A stretch of 50,316 bases of DNA, taken from contig JBNKLQ010000001.1 of assembly GCA_050292445.1 (NCBI GenBank), positions 1 through 50,316 of the forward strand, written 5' to 3'. Below the pieces are notes generated by a model. That model searched no databases and was not told where the DNA came from. It was given only the letters and a program-made list of their open reading frames with translations. Each line of letters begins with the position of its first letter. Position 1 is the stretch's first letter. This DNA is from Candidatus Promineifilaceae bacterium. Lineage in GTDB: Bacteria; Chloroflexota; Anaerolineae; Promineifilales; Promineifilaceae. Below, one piece after another: positions 24,732 through 49,937 of this stretch. The position numbers and the translations under genes were made by a program.

Positions 24732-26666
24732 TTAGTTTTGGCTGAAGTGCTCCCGGCTCTCTTCAGCATCTTGTGCCGCCCACTGCATGGTGTACAGGTT
24801 GTAGTAGCGGCCTTTTTGGGCCAACAGTTCTTCGTGGGTGCCTTGTTCAACGATACGGCCGTTATCCAGCACCACAATCTGATCTGCTCCCACAATGGTG
24901 CTCAACCGATGGGCAATGACAAAGCTGGTGCGTCCTTCCATCAGTCGGTCCAACGCTTGCTGGATTACCTTTTCCGTGGTGGTATCCACGCTGCTGGTGG
25001 CCTCATCCAGGATGAGAATACGCGGATCGGCCAGCAGGGCGCGGGCAAAAGAAATGATCTGCCGCTGCCCCACGCTCAGATTGACGCCGTTTTCGCCGAC
25101 TTCAGTCTGGTACCCTTCCGGCATTTTGCGAATAAAGTCATCAGCACCAACTGCCGTTGCAGCGGCAATCACTTCTTCCTGGGTAGCATCAAGACGGCCG
25201 TAGCGAATGTTGTCTTCAATTGTGCCCGTGAACAAAAACGTATCTTGCAGCACAATGCCCAGCTGGCTGCGCAAGCTCGCCTGCGTCACCTGGCTCACTT
25301 CATGCCCGTCAATCTGCAATGAGCCGCCGGTGATGTCAAAAAAACGAGAGATGAGCCGGATGATGGTGCTTTTACCTGCGCCCGTCTCGCCCACCAGAGC
25401 AATGCGCTGCCCCGGTTCGGCATTCAGGGTGATGCCTTGCAGAACCGGTACGCCATCCTGGTAGCTAAACTTCACATCCTTAAAGGCGACGTGTCCTTTA
25501 ACCGGGGGCAAATCAACTGCCCCCGGTGCGTCCAGCAAATCTGGCTTGGTATCAAGCAAATGGAACACGCGCTCGCTGGCGGCCATCGTCGCCTGGAACG
25601 TGTTGTACCGTTGCGCCAACTCGCGAATCGGGTCAAAAAAGCGGTTGATGTACAGTACAAAAGCGACCAGCGTTCCGGTGGTGAGGGCGTCGCCCAGTAC
25701 CAGCCAGCCACCGACGCCTACCACCAACGCGGTGGCCAGCGACCCCATGAAATCGACACCAGGGAAGAAGGTGGCCGTCAGGCGGCTGGCGGCGACGTTG
25801 GCATCAAAGAAGGAGTAGTTGAGATCGTCAAAATGCTGGCTGTTTTTCTTCTCGCGGATGAAGCTTTTGGTGACGCGAATGCCGGAAATGGATTCGTTTA
25901 AGTAGCCGTTGATGAGCGACAGTCGCTGCCGCGTAGCCCGGTAGGCGCCGCGCACCCGGACGCGCCAATAGTTGGTCAAGGCAGCCATCAGCGGCAGCAC
26001 AGCAAAGGTCACCAGTGCTAGCCGCCAGTTTAAAATCAGCATAGCGATCATGATGCCCGTCAGCGTAAAGAAGGAGCGGAACAGGCCGGTGATCGACCAG
26101 GTAATGAAATCTTGCAGCACGCCCACGTCGCTGATGAGGCGGCTCATCAGGCGGCCTACGCTGTAATTGTTGTGGAAGTTGAGCGACAGCGTGTGCAGAT
26201 GGCGGAACAATTCACTGCGGTAGTCGGCGACCACTTTGGTGCCGACGTACGCCATGATAGCAATGCGGAAGCGATTGGTGATCCATTCGCCCACGGCGGC
26301 AGCAATGAAGATCCCTGTCCACAACCGCAACGTGCTAAACGATCCGGCCCGAATACCGTCATCAATGGCCCGCCCCACGACGGTGGGTTGGGAGACGGCG
26401 AGTAGAGAACTGGTAACCATTAGCACAATGGCGACAATGAGCTTGGGCAGATACGGCCGCATATAGCCCAACAAGCGTCGCACGAGACGGCCGTCATACG
26501 CCTTGCCCAATAAATCATCGTCATCATCTTCTTTCAGCAAGGCGCGAATCCGCTCTTCACGATCTTGCCGTTCCTGTTCTTCGATGCCTATGCGGGGATC
26601 GAACTGTTTTTCTCGGGAACGGCCATTGCGGTTCTCATTTTTCTGTTGTTTTTGTTGATTACTCAT
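24732..26666 (-). CDS. ABC exporter, fused permease/ATPase half-transporter (MdlB/MsbA-like) with a charged N-terminal extension
   Basis: Six-TM region, Walker A GETGAGKST, signature LSVGQRQ and Walker B ILILDEATS. The ATG overlaps the upstream stop (ATGA). Confidence 0.92.
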   Translation of the reverse strand: MSNQQKQQKNENRNGRSREKQFDPRIGIEEQERQDREERIRALLKEDDDDDLLGKAYDGRLVRRLLGYMRPYLPKLIVAIVLMVTSSLLAVSQPTVVGRAIDDGIRAGSFSTLRLWTGIFIAAAVGEWITNRFRIAIMAYVGTKVVADYRSELFRHLHTLSLNFHNNYSVGRLMSRLISDVGVLQDFITWSITGLFRSFFTLTGIMIAMLILNWRLALVTFAVLPLMAALTNYWRVRVRGAYRATRQRLSLINGYLNESISGIRVTKSFIREKKNSQHFDDLNYSFFDANVAASRLTATFFPGVDFMGSLATALVVGVGGWLVLGDALTTGTLVAFVLYINRFFDPIRELAQRYNTFQATMAASERVFHLLDTKPDLLDAPGAVDLPPVKGHVAFKDVKFSYQDGVPVLQGITLNAEPGQRIALVGETGAGKSTIIRLISRFFDITGGSLQIDGHEVSQVTQASLRSQLGIVLQDTFLFTGTIEDNIRYGRLDATQEEVIAAATAVGADDFIRKMPEGYQTEVGENGVNLSVGQRQIISFARALLADPRILILDEATSSVDTTTEKVIQQALDRLMEGRTSFVIAHRLSTIVGADQIVVLDNGRIVEQGTHEELLAQKGRYYNLYTMQWAAQDAEESREHFSQN

Positions 26667-28441
26667 GAGGATTTTTCCTCCATTTCCGCTTCTAGAGCCA
26701 CAAACGCTTCCTGATCCTTCAGCTGTAAATCGTAAATTTCACGATATAAACCACCTTCATCCAGAAGTTCATCATGGGTGCCGCGCTGCACGATACGGCC
26801 GTGGTCTAGCACCAAAATCATATCCGCACTCTTTAGCGTCAGCAGCCGCTGGGCAATGACGAATGTCGTGCGACCTTCCATCAGCACCGCCAGCGCTTCC
26901 TGGATGAGATGCTCTGTTTCGGTATCGACACTGCTAGTGGAATCGTCCAAAATCAAAATGCTGGGGTCCGTCAGCAAAGCACGAGCAATGGCCACGCGCT
27001 GCTTTTGCCCGCCGCTCAGCGTCACGCCTCGTTCGCCCACGCGGGTATCGTATCCCTCCGGCATCTCGGAGATGAAGTCGTGGGCGCGGGCGGCTGTAGC
27101 CGCAGTGATAATTTCCTCCATGCTGGCGTTGGGACGGCCGTAAGCAATATTTTCGGCCACCGTCTGGCTAAACAAAAACGGATCTTGCAGCACAATGCCA
27201 ATTTGTTTCCGCAGCGACTGTACCTGCACACTGCGAATATCCACTCCATCCACCAAAATCTGGCCTGCCGTTGGGTCATAAAAACGAGGAATCAGATTGG
27301 TCACTGTCGATTTGCCCGAACCGGTGGGGCCAATCAAGGCAATCGTCTGGCCCGGTTCGGCGTGGAAGGAGATGTCGCTCAAAATTTTCAGGTCTTCCCG
27401 ATAGCCAAAATCAACCCCGTGGAACGTCACGGAACCATCTACACGATCTAGCCAAGTGGCATTTTCTCGCTCTTCAATTTCGCTGGGCGTGTCGATGATG
27501 TCAAAGACGCGCTTGGCGCTGGCTCCGGCCGTAGCTGCCAGATTCACTAAAAAGCCCAGCCGCTGCACCGGCGCACCCAGCATCAGCACGTAAGAGATAA
27601 GGGCAAACAGGGTACCGACGGTAATCTCCCCATCTAACGCTACTGGACCGCCAAACCAAAGCAGCAAAAAGATGGAGGTAGCTACCAGGAAGGTGAAAAA
27701 CGGCCAATTATCGGCCCAGGTGCGGATGAGTCCATAGCGGCGATCAAACCATTCGTCATTTTCCTCATCAAACTTGGCCAGTTCGTGCGGTTCGCGGGCA
27801 AACGCCTTCACCACGTTGATGCCCGTCATGCTTTCCTGCATGGTAGATGAGAGCACGCCCATTTGCTCCTGAATGAGCTTAAACATGGGGCGCACGGTGT
27901 TGCCAAAGCGAATGGTGGCAAACACCAGCAGCGGAATGGGAATCAGCCCCAGCAAAGAGAGCTGAACTGATTCCAACAGCATGGCGATAATAACGCCGAC
28001 CAGCAGCAGGATGGTGGAAATCAACCCCATCAAGCCAATGCCCACAAACCGCTCTGTTTCGGTGATGTCGCTGGTGGCCCGACTCATCAGGTCACCGGTA
28101 AGGGTGCGATCATGAAAGCTGAAGGGCAGGGCCTGCACGCTGTTGTAAAAATGATTGCGTAAGTCGTAGGAAACGCGATGGGTGAGCCACTCACCAAAGT
28201 AGAGCTGGCCAAAACCAGCCGCGCCGCGCACCACCGCGATGCCCAAAATGATGCCGCCAGCCACAAACAGTGCCCGTGGTTCGCCTGCGGTCAGTCCATT
28301 GTCAATAGCATCCTTGATAATTTGTGGCACGAATAAATTGAGCAGCGTGGCAAACAGCATAGAGAAATACGCGATAAATAGCTGTTTCCAATACGGTTTT
28401 AGGTAGCCAAGCAATCGCCTGTAGACTGCATCTTCCTTCAT
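26663..28441 (-). CDS. ABC exporter, fused permease/ATPase half-transporter (partner subunit)
   Basis: Walker A GPTGSGKST, signature LSGGQKQR and Walker B ILILDDSTS. The ATG at 28441 (MKEDAVYRR) is preceded by GGAGGA at 8 nt; the ORF opens at 28528. Confidence 0.92.
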   Translation of the reverse strand: MKEDAVYRRLLGYLKPYWKQLFIAYFSMLFATLLNLFVPQIIKDAIDNGLTAGEPRALFVAGGIILGIAVVRGAAGFGQLYFGEWLTHRVSYDLRNHFYNSVQALPFSFHDRTLTGDLMSRATSDITETERFVGIGLMGLISTILLLVGVIIAMLLESVQLSLLGLIPIPLLVFATIRFGNTVRPMFKLIQEQMGVLSSTMQESMTGINVVKAFAREPHELAKFDEENDEWFDRRYGLIRTWADNWPFFTFLVATSIFLLLWFGGPVALDGEITVGTLFALISYVLMLGAPVQRLGFLVNLAATAGASAKRVFDIIDTPSEIEERENATWLDRVDGSVTFHGVDFGYREDLKILSDISFHAEPGQTIALIGPTGSGKSTVTNLIPRFYDPTAGQILVDGVDIRSVQVQSLRKQIGIVLQDPFLFSQTVAENIAYGRPNASMEEIITAATAARAHDFISEMPEGYDTRVGERGVTLSGGQKQRVAIARALLTDPSILILDDSTSSVDTETEHLIQEALAVLMEGRTTFVIAQRLLTLKSADMILVLDHGRIVQRGTHDELLDEGGLYREIYDLQLKDQEAFVALEAEMEEKSS

Positions 28442-28526
28442 AAGGCATGTCCTCCAAGATAGTTCGTGAGGAAACGGCCGTTCCCCAAATCTTGTAATTG
28501 CTGGAAAACTGTAAGTTTTCCACACC

Positions 28527-28544
28527 ATTAGACAATCGTCTAAT
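28527..28544. promoter_or_regulatory. Candidate operator upstream of the ABC exporter operon
   Basis: ATTAGAC-aatc-GTCTAAT, a perfect 7-bp inverted repeat. A second inverted repeat, GGAAAAC-tgtaa-GTTTTCC, lies at 28503-28521. Confidence 0.3.
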
Positions 28545-28769
28545 AGAACAAATTAGTTTATATCAAACCTGCCGTAGATGTCCACCTTTTGTTTTTAATT
28601 GCCCCCTAATTGCCACTGTGTGATTGGCAAAAACCTTTCCGCTTTTACATGGTATGGCAATCACTCTCTAAAGATTAGAGTCCAAAGCAGCAAATTTGGT
28701 GAGAAACACAAAATTAAACAACGATTTTGTTTGAAATCACATTATTTTGGCGAAAAATCAAAATTGTTG

Positions 28770-28798
28770 TTGACAACGCCAAAATTTTTGTGTATATT
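28770..28798 (+). promoter_or_regulatory. Sigma-70-type promoter of the DUF2089 cassette
   Basis: TTGACA (28770-28775), a 17-nt spacer, then TATATT (28793-28798). Confidence 0.5.
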
Positions 28799-28852
28799 GC
28801 CCACATCGTTTAATTTTTTAGAGAATAATTGACACAAAAGGAAATTTTGTTC

Positions 28853-29251
28853 ATGCGAAAGCTGCTAGAAAAGTGCCCTGCCTGTGCTGGTGAGCTGGTT
28901 GTAACGCAACAGACCTGTCGCAGCTGTGGCACGATGGTTGTAGGGGAATTCACCCCCAATATTTTCTCCAAACTCTCCCCAGAAAACCTTCATTTTCTGG
29001 AGCTGTTTGTCAAAAATAAGGGCAACGTCAAGGAGATGGAGCGCGAGATTGGTATGTCTTACTGGACCATTCGCAACCGCCTGAACGAAATTGTAGAGGC
29101 GCTCGGCTTTGAAAACAAGGATGTGGAACCGGTGGCCTCTGAAGAATCGCTGCGCCATAGTCGCCAGGAAATTCTGGCTCGCGTGGACCGTGGCGAGATT
29201 GATGTCAATGAAGCCGCCCAACTGCTGAAGCAGTTAAAGTCAGCGGCCTAA
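28853..29251 (+). CDS. DUF2089-type protein: N-terminal zinc ribbon, HTH-like middle, C-terminal SHOCT-like helix
   Basis: CPACAGELVVTQQTCRSCGTMVVGEF (CxxC-N12-CxxC), then LHFLELFVKNKGNVKEMEREIGMSYWTIRNRLNEIVEALG, then RQEILARVDRGEIDVNEAAQLLKQL. The ATG at 28853 is preferred; the ORF opens at 28829. Confidence 0.75.
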   Translation: MRKLLEKCPACAGELVVTQQTCRSCGTMVVGEFTPNIFSKLSPENLHFLELFVKNKGNVKEMEREIGMSYWTIRNRLNEIVEALGFENKDVEPVASEESLRHSRQEILARVDRGEIDVNEAAQLLKQLKSAA

Positions 29252-29340
29252 CAACAAGCCAAACCTTAAACAGAAAATTGAGTAAACGTTTGCGGCAACG
29301 GCCGTCTGGCTGTTGCTGCTCCCTGCCAATGGCCACTTGG

Positions 29341-29366
29341 TAGGTCAATTTTACAAAATTGACCTA
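29341..29366. promoter_or_regulatory. Perfect palindrome TAGGTCAATTTT-AC-AAAATTGACCTA (candidate operator)
   Basis: 12-bp arms that are exact reverse complements. It lies 21 nt upstream of the ATG at 29387. A near-identical copy is at 30176-30200. Confidence 0.6.
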
Positions 29367-29386
29367 CAGTGATAAAGGAGAATCTC

Positions 29387-30178
29387 ATGAAGGAAGAACG
29401 AGCCCAGATTTTAGAGATGTTGCAAAAAGGAAAAATCACCGTGGATGAGGCGGATTTGTTGCTGGAAGCTTTGGGAGAAACGGCCGTACCGCACCAATCA
29501 TCCCCACCGGTCAAAAACATTACGCCGCCCGACCCGCTCAAGCTAGTCAAACCGCTGCATACCAACCCCAAACTCAGCGCTGAACAAATCCTCCAACTCA
29601 ACCGTGAAGGCGTAGATCCCGACTTCATTCGTGCGGTGCGCCACTTGCCGCACACGGCGCTTTCTGGCGACAACATTGTGCAGATGGCTGTTGAAGGTGT
29701 GGCCCCGGAGTTTATTACGGCCGTTGGTCAACTAGAAAACCTGCCCCTGACTGGGGACAACATCGTGCAAATGGGCATAGAAGGGGTTGACCCAGCCTTT
29801 TTACAAGCGCTTAGCGGGTTGGAATTATCTCAACTTTCCGGTGACAACATTGTGCAGATGGGCATAGAAGGGGTTGATTCGGACTTTCTCCGTGCAGTTA
29901 GCGGATTGAAGTCATCTGAGTTAACGGGCGACAACATCGTGCAAATGGGTATCGAAGGAGTTGATCCTGATTTTATACAAGCGGTTAGCGGATTAAAGGT
30001 GTCCGGGTTGACCGGCGACAACATTGTGCAGATGGGTATTGAAGGAGTGGATGAAGCATTCATTCAAAAAATGAAAGAAGCCGATTTTATCCAGGAGCTT
30101 GATGGTGATGCCTTTGTCCAAATGGCCATAGAAGGCATAGACGACGAACTGTTAAAAGAAACGATACAACTTTTGTAG
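29387..30178 (+). CDS. SHOCT-like N-terminal helix plus seven 29-residue tandem repeats (acidic paralogue), hypothetical
   Basis: RBS AAGGAG lies 6 nt before the ATG at 29387. N-terminus MKEERAQILEMLQKGKITVDEADLLLEAL, then a Pro-rich linker. Repeats of the form L(S/T)GDNIVQMGIEGVDPDFIQAVSGL follow. No signal peptide or TM helix. Confidence 0.75.
   Translation: MKEERAQILEMLQKGKITVDEADLLLEALGETAVPHQSSPPVKNITPPDPLKLVKPLHTNPKLSAEQILQLNREGVDPDFIRAVRHLPHTALSGDNIVQMAVEGVAPEFITAVGQLENLPLTGDNIVQMGIEGVDPAFLQALSGLELSQLSGDNIVQMGIEGVDSDFLRAVSGLKSSELTGDNIVQMGIEGVDPDFIQAVSGLKVSGLTGDNIVQMGIEGVDEAFIQKMKEADFIQELDGDAFVQMAIEGIDDELLKETIQLL
29573..30175 (+). repeat. Seven tandem 87-bp (29-codon) coding repeats
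   Basis: GG(C/T/G)GACAACAT(T/C)GTGCA(G/A)ATGGG(C/T)AT(A/C/T)GAAGG(G/A)GT recurs with an 87-bp period at about 29667, 29754, 29841, 29928 and 30015. Confidence 0.85.
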
Positions 30179-30200
30179 GTCAATTTTGCAAAATTGACCC
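30176..30200. promoter_or_regulatory. Palindrome GGTCAATTTT-GC-AAAATTGACC (second copy of the candidate operator)
   Basis: 10-bp perfect arms. It overlaps the TAG stop of the upstream gene and lies 18 nt before the ATG at 30218. Confidence 0.6.
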
Positions 30201-30217
30201 ACTTTCAGGAGAACAAA

Positions 30218-31411
30218 ATGAACGACGAACGCAAAATGATTTTAACCATGCTGGCCGAAGGCAAAGTCTCGGCTGATGAAGCTAATTTACTGCTAGAAGC
30301 CTTGGCCACTAGCCAAACCAAACCCACCCCGCCAATACCGCCCACACCGCCAAAACTGGTAACACCACCTGCCTTCGTGAACCCGGTGCGCTGGGAAAAT
30401 GAAGCGCCCCAACGCCACCATCGGCACCCGCACATTACGCCGCAATTTGTGGACGCGATGGCTCAAGTTGGGCTAAAAGATTTGACAGAAGATGAGCTGT
30501 GGCAGCTGCAAATTCATCATGTGCATCCTGGTTACATTCGTCGGCTGCGCGATGCCGGGTTGACAGACCTCAGCGTAGATGACATTGTGCAAATGTCTAT
30601 TCACCATGTGCGGCCAGAACTTGTTCAAGGGATTCGTAGTCTGGGGCTGACGCACCTCACGGTAGATGATGTGGTTCAGCTTGGTACTCACCATGTGCGC
30701 ACCGATTATCTGCGGCAGGTACAGGAGTTGGGCTTAACCGATCTTACCGTGGACGACATCGTCCAGCTCAGCATCCACCGCGTGCGCCCGGAAATGATTC
30801 AGGAAATCCGTGAGCTGGGGCTGGATGATTTGACCGTAGACGACGTTGTGCAGTTGGGCATCCACAACGTACGGCCGAATCTGGTACGAGAAGTGCGCAG
30901 CATGGGCCTGACTGACCTTACCATCGACCAGATCGTGCAGCTGGGCATCCACAACATCCGTCCAGACCTCATCCAACAGCTGCAAGCCACCAATCTAGGG
31001 CCATTCGATCTGGACACCATCATCAATATGGGCATTCATCACGTCACGGCCGATTACATCAAAACGATGCACAGCTTTGGTCTGCCTGATTTGGATGCCG
31101 AGCAATTGGTGAATATGCGGATTCACGGCGTTGATCCGCACTTTGTGGCTGGCATCATGGCGCTGAATCTGCCCGATGTAACGGCCGAAACACTCGTCAC
31201 CATGCGCATTCACGGCCTGCGGCCCCAACATGCCCAAAAACTGCAAGAGATTTTAGGCAAATCGCTCACAGCCGATGATTTGGTCACCATGAAAATCCAT
31301 GGCGTTTCCCCCAAATTTGCCACGCGCATGAAGGCAAAGATGGGCGATGCGCTTACGGCGGATGAACTGGTGAACATGATGATTCATGGTGAGCCAGAAG
31401 GGGCCTGGTGA
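30218..31411 (+). CDS. SHOCT-like N-terminal helix plus about 10.6 29-residue tandem repeats (His/Arg-rich paralogue), hypothetical
   Basis: RBS CAGGAG lies before the ATG at 30218. N-terminus MNDERKMILTMLAEGKVSADEANLLLEAL, then a Pro-rich linker. Repeats of the form LTVDDIVQLGIH(H/N/G)VRPxLIxEIRxLGLTD follow without a single indel. Confidence 0.75.
   Translation: MNDERKMILTMLAEGKVSADEANLLLEALATSQTKPTPPIPPTPPKLVTPPAFVNPVRWENEAPQRHHRHPHITPQFVDAMAQVGLKDLTEDELWQLQIHHVHPGYIRRLRDAGLTDLSVDDIVQMSIHHVRPELVQGIRSLGLTHLTVDDVVQLGTHHVRTDYLRQVQELGLTDLTVDDIVQLSIHRVRPEMIQEIRELGLDDLTVDDVVQLGIHNVRPNLVREVRSMGLTDLTIDQIVQLGIHNIRPDLIQQLQATNLGPFDLDTIINMGIHHVTADYIKTMHSFGLPDLDAEQLVNMRIHGVDPHFVAGIMALNLPDVTAETLVTMRIHGLRPQHAQKLQEILGKSLTADDLVTMKIHGVSPKFATRMKAKMGDALTADELVNMMIHGEPEGAW
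30482..31408 (+). repeat. About 10.6 tandem 87-bp coding repeats (diverged at nucleotide level)
   Basis: A strict 29-codon periodicity is seen in the translation from aa 89 to the C-terminus. Confidence 0.8.
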
Positions 31412-31490
31412 TCGATAATCAGTGTTCAGTAAGTCAGTGATCAGGGAGTCAGTTTTTACTGATTACCGATTACTGACTCACTGATTACTG
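31409..31490. repeat. CAGT-unit hairpin element, copy 3 (between convergent genes)
   Basis: TGATCGATAATCAGTGTTCAGTAAGTCAGTGATCAGGGAGTCAGT-tttt-ACTGATTACCGATTACTGACTCACTGATTACTG. It covers both flanking stop codons. Confidence 0.7.
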
Positions 31491-33882
31491 TTAAAATTGT
31501 TTCGCTATTGTGAAGATTTAGCAGGGGGAAGGTCTTACTGCTTTCGTCCAGGGGGAGACGGCCGTTTTCCAGCAAAAGTAGTCGTTGTGAAGTGAGTAAA
31601 TGAATGAGGGTGTCCTCAGGCTTGGGCACAGCAGCAACGAGATCGCTGCGTCGGGCCACCAGCGATTTACCTTTGTCGTTTTCTTTTTCTGGCTGAGTAA
31701 CCCAATTGGCCAGGAGCTGACGGCCATAGCCATCATTCGTAATGAGCAAGATGGGGTCGTGGGGTTGGCAGAGTACGGCCGTTTCCACCCGATCCCCCTT
31801 GGCCACGTTCATCAACTGCGTGCCAGAACCGCGCAAACTGCCCACCTGGCTGCGTAATCCTTTGCCGCTGCGCGTGAGCAGCAGCAGCGTTTCATCTCCC
31901 TCAGCACCATCCGCAAACACAGGCACGCCCGGCAGCGGTTGGTCAAACATCAACGGCACAGGGGCTTCAATGCTCTCAATCATGACACGGGTGGGATACG
32001 GCCGTGCCAACCCCGCCGAAGTCACTAGCAGCAGTTTCTCCTGTTGTTTAATATCGCGCCAGCGAGCCACCGTACACAACACTTCCCGTTTGCCCAATTG
32101 GAACACCTGATTCAGCGTTACCTTAGCCACCTGCTGTTCCGCCAACTGGCGCGGCGTCAGCAGCAAAAAGCGATAAGTGGAGGTGAGAATCAGCAGCTGT
32201 TCATCCCAATCGGCCGTAATTGCTCGTAGACCATTGCTCGGCAATCCCAATTCAGACAAATTCACAGATTCCGCAGATTTTTTCTCTAAATCTCTGCGCT
32301 CTCCGCATTCTCTGCGGTTAAAAATCTTCGGCAAGGGAACGGCCGTAATCGTTTTATCATCCCCCAGCACCACCAGCGCCCGGTCCGACTGGGCTGATTC
32401 CGCCTCAACCACGCCTTCCTGCACCTGGATGCGCCGCCGCAGCATGTCGATGTTGGCCGGGCTCACTTTCGGGCGGCTGGTTTCCACTGGTTCTGCCGAG
32501 GCTACATCAGCGGGCGTGTATGCCTGGGTCGTTTCTGTGCCATCGTCTAGCCCTTGGGCAAAGATGCCCAACCCGGCCGTGACGCTGCTAAACGTATCTA
32601 CGCGCCGAACTTTTTCCGGGCCAAACTTGTGCTGCAACATCTCGTCAAACGCTGGCACCTGGCTGGAGCCTCCGGTGCGAATGACGGCGTCAATTTGTTC
32701 TGGCTTTAGCCCGGATACTGCCATTGTTTCGTCGATGTGGGCATCAATCGCCTGAATTTCGGCGCGAATGATCGTTTCAAATTCGCTGCGGGTGACAAAC
32801 TCCTGCACCTTGAAGCCCGGCCCTTCCAGCGTAATCGTTGCCCCGCGCTTATCGGACAACGTGCGCTTGGCCTGCTCCACGATGTCGAACATTTGCAGGC
32901 CGTAGTTGCTAGAGACCAGGCTTTCTAGCGCTTCGATCTGGTAGCGGCGCTGGGCAGTTTGGGCGATGTCGCGCAGCATTCTTTTATTTTCGGCCGTTTG
33001 CAGTTCCAAAATGGTTTGCCAACTAGAAAATGAATCAAAAATCCAGTTGGGTACGGTAAGCGCCTTGTGCCGTGGGCCAAAGTAGCTACCCTGGCCAAAG
33101 TGGCGCGGCAGCTTGGCCCGCACCAGCTTCTGGTCGAACACGTCACCGGCCACGGGAATACCGCCGGTGGCCAACACCCGCTGCTGGGTGCGCTCGCCCA
33201 GGCGCATCACCGTCAGATCCAGCGTACCGCCGCCAAAGTCAAAGACGAGCACGTTTTGTGGTGTATCGATGCTGGCTTCGTAGCTGTAGGCGGCGGCAAT
33301 GGGTTCGCGTTGCAGATAGACGGTTTCGTAGCCCGCCTGGAACGCCGCTTGCAGTAGACGCGCCTCGGCCAGCCGATCTTTGTCTGGGTCGGTGGCAAAG
33401 CGGACGGGGCGGCCTAACACCACCTGGCGCAGCGGTTGGCCCAGATGCTGTTCGGCGCGCGTTTTAGTGATGTTGAGGTAGAGGGCGATCAAATTTTCTA
33501 GCGAGTAATAATGCTGGCCGATGACGGTGCCGGGGTAGTCGGCATCGCGCAGACTGGTTTTGATGGAGAGCAGCAGCCGCCCTGGCGAGTAGACATCGAC
33601 GTAGACGTAGACATCGGTGACGTAATGCATGTCGGCTCCGCGAATTTCAATCTCGCCGATCCACACCTTTTTGGTTTTGACGGGACGACCGACGTTTTGC
33701 TCGAAGTAGCGGTTGAGGGCGTCGCGGCCAATATAAATTTGCTGCTCGTTGGTGATGTAGAGCGCGGTACGAGCGACGCGTGGGTTATTGTTGGCTGGAT
33801 CGAGTGGGATAATGTTCACGGAACGGCCGTTATACACCGCCATCCCTGAATTTGTGGTCCCAAAATCCATCCCCACAATCAT
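31456..33882 (-). CDS. Hsp70-family ATPase (actin-like nucleotide-binding domain) with a long non-canonical C-terminal region
   Basis: Phosphate-1 motif IVGMDFGTTNSGMAV, phosphate-2 motif VLVFDFGGGTLDLTVM and adenosine motif AVIRTGGSSQVPAF. The C-terminal ~340 aa is unlike the DnaK substrate-binding domain. Confidence 0.85.
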   Translation of the reverse strand: MIVGMDFGTTNSGMAVYNGRSVNIIPLDPANNNPRVARTALYITNEQQIYIGRDALNRYFEQNVGRPVKTKKVWIGEIEIRGADMHYVTDVYVYVDVYSPGRLLLSIKTSLRDADYPGTVIGQHYYSLENLIALYLNITKTRAEQHLGQPLRQVVLGRPVRFATDPDKDRLAEARLLQAAFQAGYETVYLQREPIAAAYSYEASIDTPQNVLVFDFGGGTLDLTVMRLGERTQQRVLATGGIPVAGDVFDQKLVRAKLPRHFGQGSYFGPRHKALTVPNWIFDSFSSWQTILELQTAENKRMLRDIAQTAQRRYQIEALESLVSSNYGLQMFDIVEQAKRTLSDKRGATITLEGPGFKVQEFVTRSEFETIIRAEIQAIDAHIDETMAVSGLKPEQIDAVIRTGGSSQVPAFDEMLQHKFGPEKVRRVDTFSSVTAGLGIFAQGLDDGTETTQAYTPADVASAEPVETSRPKVSPANIDMLRRRIQVQEGVVEAESAQSDRALVVLGDDKTITAVPLPKIFNRRECGERRDLEKKSAESVNLSELGLPSNGLRAITADWDEQLLILTSTYRFLLLTPRQLAEQQVAKVTLNQVFQLGKREVLCTVARWRDIKQQEKLLLVTSAGLARPYPTRVMIESIEAPVPLMFDQPLPGVPVFADGAEGDETLLLLTRSGKGLRSQVGSLRGSGTQLMNVAKGDRVETAVLCQPHDPILLITNDGYGRQLLANWVTQPEKENDKGKSLVARRSDLVAAVPKPEDTLIHLLTSQRLLLLENGRLPLDESSKTFPLLNLHNSETILTVISESVIGNQ

Positions 33883-48914: not shown

Positions 48915-49937
48915 TTAATCGCTAGCTTCCAAACGGGCAGCCAAGCGATCCACGAGGAGAATAACACTGATGCCCACGAGTGCCAAGACGAGGGCAATGC
49001 CAAACTCAGTGATGGCGGCGCTGCTATTGAAGCTGGGCAAGATATTGGCTTGCTCAATGACCAGTTTGTGCCCATCGCTGTTGAGAATAAATTGTCCGAC
49101 ATCATCACGCAGCCAGTCCAAATCCAATTTCCAGGGCCAAATTTTGCGCAGGCTGCCTACCATCAAACCAATGAGCAGGGCAACGGTGAGATCGTGGTAT
49201 CGGTTGAAGAGCCAACCAAGGACCTGAGCAAAGGTGATGAGTCCAATAACAGCTCCAATTGCTACAAAGATGAGGGGAACGGCCGCAGCCAAATCGCCGC
49301 CGCGCAAATCGTTTACTGAGCCTAAAACATATTGGTATTTACCGAGCAAAACAAGCAGAAACGCACCCGAAATACCGGGCAGGATGAGGGCGCAGCTGGC
49401 CACAGCACCGCTGAGAATTAGGAACCACCAGGCGTTGGGCGTGTGTACGGGAACCAGGCCAACCAGCAAATAAGCGACGACTGCTCCTGCCAGCAGCACC
49501 GCAAAAAGAGGCGGCTGCCACTGCTTAATCCGTTTGCTGACAACAAAGACGGAGGCCAGCACCAGGCCGAAGAAGAAGCTCCATAAAAAGACAGGTTGAT
49601 TTACCAGCAAGTTTTCCAGAGCGTGTGAAAGGGTGATGATGGCAATAAAGATGCCCACCGCCACAGAAAGCAGAAATTCCCAATTGAGAATTTGAAAAGT
49701 GTCTTTGAGGCGAAATTTAAGTGCAGCTTGCAGGAAGTGGGGTTGGCCAATGGTGCGAATCGAGTCAATGAGTTCTTCGTAGATACCCAGGATGAAGGCC
49801 ATTGTGCCACCAGAAACGCCAGGAACGATGTCTGAGGCGCCCATGCAGATGCCACGGGCGACGATGCCGAGATAGTCAGGAATCGTGCGTTGTTTTTTGG
49901 TGGATACGGCCGTTTCTTCCAGTGTTGTTTTTTGCAT
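48915..49937 (-). CDS. DUF368-family polytopic membrane protein
   Basis: GASDIVPGVSGGTMAFILGIYEELI and a second half with LILPGISGAFLLVLLGKY. The ATG at 49937 is preferred; the ORF opens at TTG 49970. Confidence 0.82.
   Translation of the reverse strand: MQKTTLEETAVSTKKQRTIPDYLGIVARGICMGASDIVPGVSGGTMAFILGIYEELIDSIRTIGQPHFLQAALKFRLKDTFQILNWEFLLSVAVGIFIAIITLSHALENLLVNQPVFLWSFFFGLVLASVFVVSKRIKQWQPPLFAVLLAGAVVAYLLVGLVPVHTPNAWWFLILSGAVASCALILPGISGAFLLVLLGKYQYVLGSVNDLRGGDLAAAVPLIFVAIGAVIGLITFAQVLGWLFNRYHDLTVALLIGLMVGSLRKIWPWKLDLDWLRDDVGQFILNSDGHKLVIEQANILPSFNSSAAITEFGIALVLALVGISVILLVDRLAARLEASD

Follow-up and report, generated by a model that had tools for sequence, protein, structure and literature searches.

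What could three adjacent genes accomplish that encode a likely DNA-binding protein and two long repeat arrays, with no enzymatic domain found among them? This question is raised by a cassette at 28770–31411 of a 50,316-nucleotide (nt) stretch of DNA from a Candidatus Promineifilaceae bacterium (contig JBNKLQ010000001.1), the whole of which is called the window below. Downstream of a near-consensus promoter, three open reading frames (ORFs), here g1, g2 and g3, follow one another on the plus strand, all in one frame and each with an AGGAG-type ribosome-binding site, read from the sequence, a few bases 5' of the start codon. We consider it about an even chance that the cassette works as a self-contained module for transcription control in the cytoplasm, a split one-component-like system in which g2 and g3 would form the input and g1 the output, coupled by SHOCT-like hairpins. 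The window is assigned by similarity to a Chloroflexota genome of Anaerolineae/Ardenticatenales type because the closest g1 loci (91–96% identity) come from metagenome-assembled genomes of Anaerolineae, Promineifilaceae, Ardenticatenaceae and Ca. Leptofilum. A cyanobacterial origin, which the heptamer repeats had suggested, was rejected on this ground. The cassette comprises the following parts.

28759–28790, plus strand: two direct CAAAATTNTTG copies (28759–28769 and 28780–28790), a putative operator found by repeat and palindrome search
28770–28798, plus strand: sigma-70-type promoter-like site, TTGACA (28770–28775), a 17-nt spacer and TATATT (28793–28798), with 11/12 consensus positions
28853–29251, plus strand: g1, a DUF2089 protein of 132 amino acids (aa), by Pfam
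28874–28966, plus strand: zinc ribbon of g1 (aa 8–38)
28973–29113, plus strand: GerE/sigma-region-4-like helix-turn-helix (HTH) of g1 (aa 41–87)
29162–29242, plus strand: SHOCT-like two-helix hairpin of g1 (aa 104–130)
29387–30178, plus strand: g2, the 'E-type' partner, 263 aa
29393–29479, plus strand: SHOCT-like hairpin of g2 (aa 3–31), followed by a Pro-rich linker
29561–30169, plus strand: seven 29-aa repeats of g2 (aa 59–261)
30218–31411, plus strand: g3, the 'H-type' partner, 397 aa
30224–30310, plus strand: SHOCT-like hairpin of g3 (aa 3–31), followed by a disordered Pro-rich linker (aa 32–72)
30434–31390, plus strand: about eleven 29-aa repeats of g3 (aa 73–391)

A likely regulator and two repeat-bearing partners

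The first gene encodes a protein in three parts. Its HTH matches DUF2089 (PF09862) in Pfam with 74.3 bits over aa 41–87 (cut-off 33.4), and its zinc ribbon matches Zn_ribbon_DUF2089 (PF22747) with 35.4 bits (cut-off 27.6). The four cysteines (C8, C11, C22 and C25), invariant in 48 homologues, are spaced CxxC-N10-CxxC; the DUF2089 layout given in a preliminary description of this DNA thus holds for both domains, while the N12 spacing proposed there does not. The C-terminal SHOCT-like match of g1 to PF22746 reaches 19.9 bits, under the cut-off of 27. Close g1 orthologues, e.g., P0270, carry PF22746 in precomputed matches, and in an AlphaFold2 model of moderate confidence (predicted local distance difference test, pLDDT, 77; helices 43–54, 59–66, 70–84, 97–112 and 118–130) the last two helices coincide with this region. 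Foldseek places the g1 model near the HTHs of PucR, LuxR/GerE and ECF sigma region 4 with probabilities of 0.9–0.98 but E > 0.1, in agreement with the published grouping of DUF2089-HTH with GerE-HTH (Ravi et al. 2024). The modelled HTH fold and the conserved promoter motifs suggest that g1 may bind DNA sequence-specifically. Against the PADLOC models of anti-phage defence, g1 gives weak generic HTH matches alone, the best being 5.9e-5 to Csa3, and g2 and g3 give zero matches.

The promoter offers a candidate target. The two CAAAATTNTTG copies are spaced 21 nt apart on both sides of the -35 box, the first abutting this box and the second forming a near-palindrome within the -35/-10 spacer. In an alignment of the 330 nt upstream of g1 from 25 Chloroflexota loci, a single conserved island, TCAAAAnTnTTGTTGACAnnnCCAAAATTTTTGTGTATAnTG, stands amid diverged DNA and holds the -35 and -10 boxes and both CAAAATTNTTG copies; TTGTTGACA does not vary at all, and the -10 region hardly varies. 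Paired CAAAATTNTTG sites thus occupy the usual position of a repressor operator, where g1 may bind.

The partners g2 and g3 both start with a SHOCT-like hairpin, which passes the cut-off of 27 for SHOCT-like_DUF2089-C (PF22746) with 39.0 and 36.3 bits, respectively, and matches this Pfam family only, not canonical SHOCT (PF09851). A SHOCT-like helix had been proposed for all three proteins, and it stands above threshold in g2 and g3, with the g1 match below. After the linker, the period is strictly 29 residues with zero register slips, over 7 units in g2 and 11 units detected by hidden Markov model (HMM) plus a half unit in g3; at the DNA level, Tandem Repeats Finder (TRF) reports an 87-nt unit in 3.5 copies for g2. 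A histidine is present in 11/11 units of g3, and in the same register g2 has glutamate in place of this near-invariant family residue in 6/7 units, i.e., in every regular unit. This swap in the first partner is strict across all orthologues, and the Glu-type and His-type arrays could pair with each other. The repeat region of g2 has an isoelectric point of 4.05 and a net charge of -25, and that of g3 a net charge of -17. No hydrophobic segment is found in either protein, the maximum 19-residue Kyte-Doolittle mean being 0.99 in g2 and 1.30 in g3 (threshold 1.6). Likewise, Pfam detects in them neither Peptidase_M56 (PF05569), so that neither qualifies as an M56 protein, nor Toastrack/DUF4097. 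These results bear out much of the preliminary description: three same-strand genes after a TTGACA-17-TATATT promoter, now seen to be conserved in 25 loci, with g2 and g3 built of a helix motif, a Pro-rich linker and 29-residue tandem repeats, without signal peptide or transmembrane helix, in a cassette that lacks an enzymatic domain.

The cassette is co-conserved across related genomes. Searching one genome per species for g1 gave 29 loci, whose ORFs were searched with HMMs of the window's repeat units and SHOCT-like hairpins. In 24/24 Chloroflexota loci with a full-length g1 match (identity 64–96%), which form one order-level clade so that part of the synteny is inherited, one or two same-strand genes come after DUF2089, and their products open with a SHOCT-like hairpin and carry 4–11 repeats; the partial-match Chloroflexota locus L029 is left out of this count. 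The order of transcription factor, Glu-type and His-type partner is present in 14 complete loci and in the window, three further loci are cut by a contig end, and seven have the His-type alone, every single-partner locus being of this type. In one of them (L014, 6394–7829), DUF2089 and the lone His-type partner lie 1.4 kilobases (kb) apart; other loci hold the Glu-type gene in this interval, and here it may have decayed or been replaced. Two distant metagenome contigs, L001 and L002 (g1 identity 44–47%), also have DUF2089 followed by a SHOCT-repeat protein. The possibility that the three genes are not conserved together, raised in the preliminary description, is contradicted because the cassette recurs in the 24 Chloroflexota loci and in L001/L002. 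In a betaproteobacterium, Zixibacteria and Ignavibacteria, the gene after a remoter DUF2089 codes for a short SHOCT-like protein whose C-terminal part differs, and the general rule, as read from gene order, is DUF2089 plus SHOCT-like+X, where X varies.

The number of repeats changes among close relatives, from 5 to 7 in the E-type and from 4 to 11 in the H-type. The window has seven Glu-type units and L004, whose g1 is 96% identical, has five (arrays compared: window 29561–30169, L004 6520–7137, L013 6549–7211 and L027 6506–7114), which suggests that the Glu-type array has recently expanded or contracted.

The 29-residue repeat inside and outside the cassette

An AlphaFold2 model of g3, run on a 71-sequence alignment (pLDDT 90.2, predicted template modelling score 0.73), shows the SHOCT-like hairpin (helices 3–13 and 19–31), a linker disordered at 34–64 (pLDDT under 50) and a regular solenoid of 22 short helices, paired as 11 two-helix units. 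Each modelled unit has two 9-residue helices, joined by a 4-residue turn that carries the IH-x-V / x-P motif, and closes with a 7-residue loop. Foldseek against the PDB returns a designed helical-repeat cage first, followed by the TAL effector 4osl_A and BurrH 4cj9_A, the latter two with probability 1.00 and template modelling (TM) scores of 0.2–0.3. The family profile also finds transcription activator-like (TAL) effectors (TALEs) among PDB sequences with a whole-sequence E of ~1e-11, although single stretches reach i-Evalues of 0.02–0.2. The match rests on the similarity of IHGVTPEfI to AHGLTPEQVV, which in TALEs belongs to the turn between repeats and lies outside the base-reading loop. A register in which 'IH-x' at positions 16–17 would correspond to the loop with the repeat-variable diresidue (RVD) was rejected, since HMMER and hhalign both put IHGVTPE on the turn AHGLTPE. 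With a two-repeat profile, hhalign gives 42% probability against TALE repeats; g2 or g3 searched alone finds no TALE, and the Pfam TAL_effector model was never reported among the family scans.

Searching with g3 retrieves 290 relatives, mostly not SHOCT proteins, which fall into two groups. The first comprises M56/BlaR1-type peptidases (PF05569) from Acidobacteriota-like, Zixibacteria, Dormibacteraeota and Thermoanaerobaculia metagenome-assembled genomes, in which the repeats are C-terminal, after the last transmembrane segment. The second consists of 290–400-aa proteins in which a signal peptide and a conserved, probably beta-rich N-terminal part precede the repeats. Most family members are thus exported, and the repeat is mostly the extracytoplasmic C-terminal domain of M56/BlaR1-like proteases; the link to the C-terminal regions of BlaR1/M56 proteins, suggested in the preliminary description, proves correct. 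An exhaustive search with a full-length profile collects 4,466 clusters (50% identity) at E <= 1e-10. The family signature, to which g3 and, apart from its Glu-for-His swap, g2 conform, is Ile15-His16-Gly17-Val18 plus Pro20 in tandem units of period 29: Ile15 is conserved in 94% and His16 in 97% of 658 non-redundant unit pairs from sampled family proteins, and 705 of ~1,070 spacings equal 29.

No Pfam or NCBIfam model was found to cover the repeat, which the preliminary description could not assign to a named family; its placement in a well-characterised family, given there as a ground for refutation, thus did not emerge from these scans. Searches for such a family in Pfam, NCBIfam and PADLOC gave scattered sub-threshold matches to LYTB, Arginase, HHH_5 and DNA_pol_lambd_f with no significant single stretch, which are read as repeat-compounded noise; one family member is labelled IspH through spurious LYTB matches. 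In the searchable literature, no paper was found that treats the repeat, either in M56 proteins or in a TALE-inspired repeat screen. A region of ~100 aa ahead of the repeats is also common to the exported repeat proteins and to many M56 fusions; no Pfam model covers it, and the cytoplasmic SHOCT forms lack it. This probably beta-rich region (G-x-W ... VQL ... RDAG-x-x-x-C-x-G ... G-x-G-x-F-x-F) is seen in P0004, P0005, P0011, P0022 and P0076 and at L033 6872–7813 and L037 6073–7194.

Within a sample of the neighbourhoods of exported relatives, five loci, four of them independent (L033/L036, L035, L037 and L038), have a BlaI-type repressor gene (Penicillinase_R, PF03965), followed by an M56 protease with 3–7 repeats and a secreted protein with 6–7 repeats. 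PF03965 is found in the loci of exported relatives only and not upstream of g2 and g3. By analogy, the 29-residue repeat is probably a sensing module because it fills the slot of the beta-lactam-binding domain of BlaR1 and recurs wired to a repressor, a positional argument that is the strongest for this role.

A possible mechanism and its alternatives

The reading of the cassette as a transcription-control module starts from its gene order and domains, the predicted fold, the conservation of genes and promoter, and a repeat common to both systems. In this module, g1 would be the DNA-binding output and would most likely bind the paired CAAAATTNTTG sites round its own -35 box, autoregulating the operon. 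The inputs would be g2 and g3, as rigid two-helix solenoids on flexible Pro-rich tethers, and the SHOCT-like hairpins, of the same family at the end of g1 and at the starts of g2 and g3, would bring the solenoids to g1 by contact or co-localisation. Once the solenoids bind a ligand or partner, the grip of g1 on DNA would change. This logic would parallel that of the exported relatives, which combine a BlaI repressor, an M56/BlaR1-type protease with the repeat array as outer sensor, and a second, free repeat protein. The DNA target and the sensor role are both deduced here, as is the SHOCT-mediated coupling, which is the weakest link of the mechanism.

Several points weigh against this mechanism. 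For canonical SHOCT, oligomerisation was not supported in the only experiments published (PMC3581485), and both DUF2089 proteins and the 29-residue repeat are known from sequence and prediction alone. The repeat is extracytoplasmic in most family members and cytoplasmic here, so the ligand need not match. Across the window, the operator motif is not enriched, with 7 matches vs 3.1 expected, and conservation inside one bacterial order may come partly from shared ancestry. Finally, the repeat protein P0002, whose N-terminus is loosely similar but not called SHOCT-like by Pfam, has no DUF2089 neighbour; it was considered as a further DUF2089-linked case and rejected for this reason.

The main rival, possible yet unlikely in our estimation, is a membrane-proximal envelope-stress module like Lia/Psp, in which the hairpins would tie g1, g2 and g3 to the inner membrane leaflet without binding each other, the solenoids would replace Toastrack as an assembly platform, and released g1 would regulate an ABC exporter. 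SHOCT-like domains are predicted to fasten a variety of other domains to the inner leaflet of the membrane, and DUF2089 has been placed in Toastrack/LiaF-type contexts (Ravi et al. 2024); in addition, repeat relatives sit on membrane M56 proteins. An exporter lies next to the cassette in the window, with the following features.

24732–28528, minus strand: ABC exporter gene pair, each with ABC_membrane and ABC_tran (Pfam), divergent from g1
28584–28555, minus strand: promoter-like site of the ABC exporter, TGGACA-18-TAAACT
28528–28543: palindrome TTAGAC-AATC-GTCTAA, downstream of the ABC promoter-like site and kept in most related loci

This divergent pair adjoins the cassette in 22 related loci (71–97% identity) and is a candidate regulatory target, judged by its position, with no claim that it belongs to the unit. 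However, it is missing beside the cassette in L025, L026, L001 and L002, and its promoter holds TTAGAC-N4-GTCTAA, a palindrome unlike the CAAAAT motif of the g1 promoter and perhaps the operator of a different regulator. The cassette is flanked by no Toastrack, PspC, LiaF or sigma/anti-sigma gene, the neighbours identified by Pfam being the ABC exporters and an Hsp70-like gene, and membrane binding by the SHOCT-like hairpin is itself a prediction.

Another explanation, which we find harder to credit, is that the solenoids serve as scaffold, adaptor or chaperone-like proteins with a role of their own, g1 being merely the operon's transcription factor and not controlled by g2 and g3. Alpha-solenoids are generic protein-binding scaffolds, and the very acidic repeat regions (net -25 and -17), a repeat number that drifts in close relatives (E-type 5 to 7, H-type 4 to 11) and the occurrence of P0002 without DUF2089 would all suit such a role. 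Yet it leaves unexplained why the rare SHOCT-like hairpin is common to the regulator and both partners, and why the repeat is recurrently wired to two kinds of transcription-control system.

It could also be speculated, as a bold and rather improbable extension, that the array is a widespread, hitherto unrecognised recognition solenoid related by descent to TALE/helix-hairpin-helix (HhH)-type repeats, which reads a polymer or ligand and provides the input for two unrelated control systems, the proteolytic BlaR1/BlaI outside the cell and the non-covalent SHOCT-like/DUF2089 inside; the cytoplasmic Glu and His ladders would then pair as a pH- or metal-sensitive switch on the regulator. Least credible of all is that the repeat is a distant TALE/BurrH or helix-hairpin-helix relative that binds nucleic acid, with g3 as a polymer-reading solenoid recruited to an HTH protein: the TAL profile match, the two Foldseek hits in the top three, the aligned turn motif and weak HHH_5 and DNA polymerase lambda fingers matches in 16–17/71 members favour it, but no aligned stretch is significant alone, hhalign remains at 42%, g2 and g3 alone miss TALEs, there is no Pfam TAL_effector match, TM-scores are low, the period is 29 and not 33–35, the RVD-aligned loop is conserved (GLTDLT) in g3, and DNA binding by the arrays is disfavoured because they are strongly acidic and most relatives are exported.

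For the transcription-control reading, and for the repeat in general, the cassette is of practical value as a small soluble three-protein system in which the binding partner of the repeat, the role of the SHOCT-like hairpin and the DNA target of DUF2089 can be tested. In Acidobacteriota, Zixibacteria, Dormibacteraeota and other groups, BlaR1-like M56 proteins that end in this repeat, and not in a penicillin-binding domain, number in the thousands, and the family (~4,500 clusters at 50% identity) is missed by current domain databases and sometimes mislabelled by annotation pipelines.

Neighbouring features and known systems

Downstream of g3, the window holds two further features.

31416–31493: long hairpin of inverted heptamer repeats, ATCAGTG x4.9 facing TTACTGA x4.9 (TRF)
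31456–33882, minus strand: Hsp70-like gene, 808 aa, convergent with g3 and a conserved neighbour in 12 of the closest loci

In the 808-aa protein, an Hsp70/actin-like ATPase domain (PF00012) lies at the N-terminus, and a C-terminal region of ~550 aa gives no Pfam match. The hairpin sits between g3 and this gene, folds as RNA with -40.2 kcal/mol (z -6.4), a stability reached by 0/200 shuffles, and has no T-run; it is likely a two-way transcription stop, a role predicted here.

Two candidate elements between g1 and g2 were rejected. A terminator at 29322–29344 is no better than chance, and a cassette-specific RNA element, for which no Rfam match was found in the spacer, is not a local signal because its cross-locus hairpin contains ACGGCCGT, an octamer palindrome that occurs 86 times in the 50.3 kb of the window (1.7 per kb), in genes and between genes (e.g., 743–751, 29297–29305, 29479–29487 and 49906–49914). 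The next commonest 8-mer palindrome has 6 copies, and AACGGCCGT has 87 matches vs 0.45 expected. ACGGCCGT is equally dense in related Chloroflexota loci (L004–L027) and nearly absent from Acidobacteria-type loci, and it looks like a HIP1-style highly iterated palindrome of the lineage; a limited literature search found no report of it in Chloroflexi. In the same spacer, a perfect 12-base-pair stem, GGTAGGTCAATTTT ACAA AATTGACCTAC, lies at 29339–29368 just 5' of the g2 ribosome-binding site and is not found in the orthologous spacers of other loci.

How does the cassette compare with known systems? Like canonical SHOCT (PF09851; Eberhardt et al. 2013), its hairpin is a short terminal two-helix module of a kind joined to many unrelated domains, yet only PF22746 matches here, and the hairpin is N-terminal in g2 and g3. 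With TALE/BurrH, the nearest solved structures by Foldseek, the arrays share tandem two-helix repeats forming a solenoid and a similar turn motif, HG-[LV]-TPE. They differ in their period of 29 vs 33–35, in lacking a hypervariable base-specifying pair (the RVD-aligned loop, GLTDLT, being conserved in g3), and in that the 29-residue arrays are acidic and the family is mostly exported. TALE/BurrH is treated as the closest structural analogue on the strength of the model, with homology unproven.

As in the BlaR1/BlaI (MecR1/MecI) system, one regulator gene accompanies two repeat-bearing genes. However, g2 and g3 have no M56 protease domain, transmembrane segments or signal peptide, the upstream regulator is DUF2089 and not a BlaI winged helix (PF03965), and coupling in the cassette would be non-proteolytic. 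True BlaR1 senses beta-lactams by a penicillin-binding domain, which the cassette does not have.

The closest counterpart is the operon type described by Ravi et al. (2024). The preliminary description had called the cassette uncharacterised, which is not wholly so because the arrangement DUF2089 -> SHOCT-like+X was published from comparative genomics in 2024; the repeat module, in turn, is undescribed. As there, g1 has a zinc ribbon, an HTH and, though below the Pfam cut-off, a SHOCT-like hairpin, and the next same-strand genes start with a SHOCT-like domain of the same family. In contrast to the published cases, X is here a 29-residue alpha-solenoid repeat and not Toastrack/DUF4097, the partners are two paralogues (E-type and H-type), and the lineage is Chloroflexota; Pfam finds no Toastrack partner, sigma or anti-sigma gene of the four-gene version, and no LiaF or PspC lies nearby. 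Relative to the searchable literature, what the cassette adds is the identity of X as a member of an undescribed family of ~4,500 clusters, the link of this repeat to M56/BlaI triads, the paired Glu/His paralogues and a conserved operator-like promoter.

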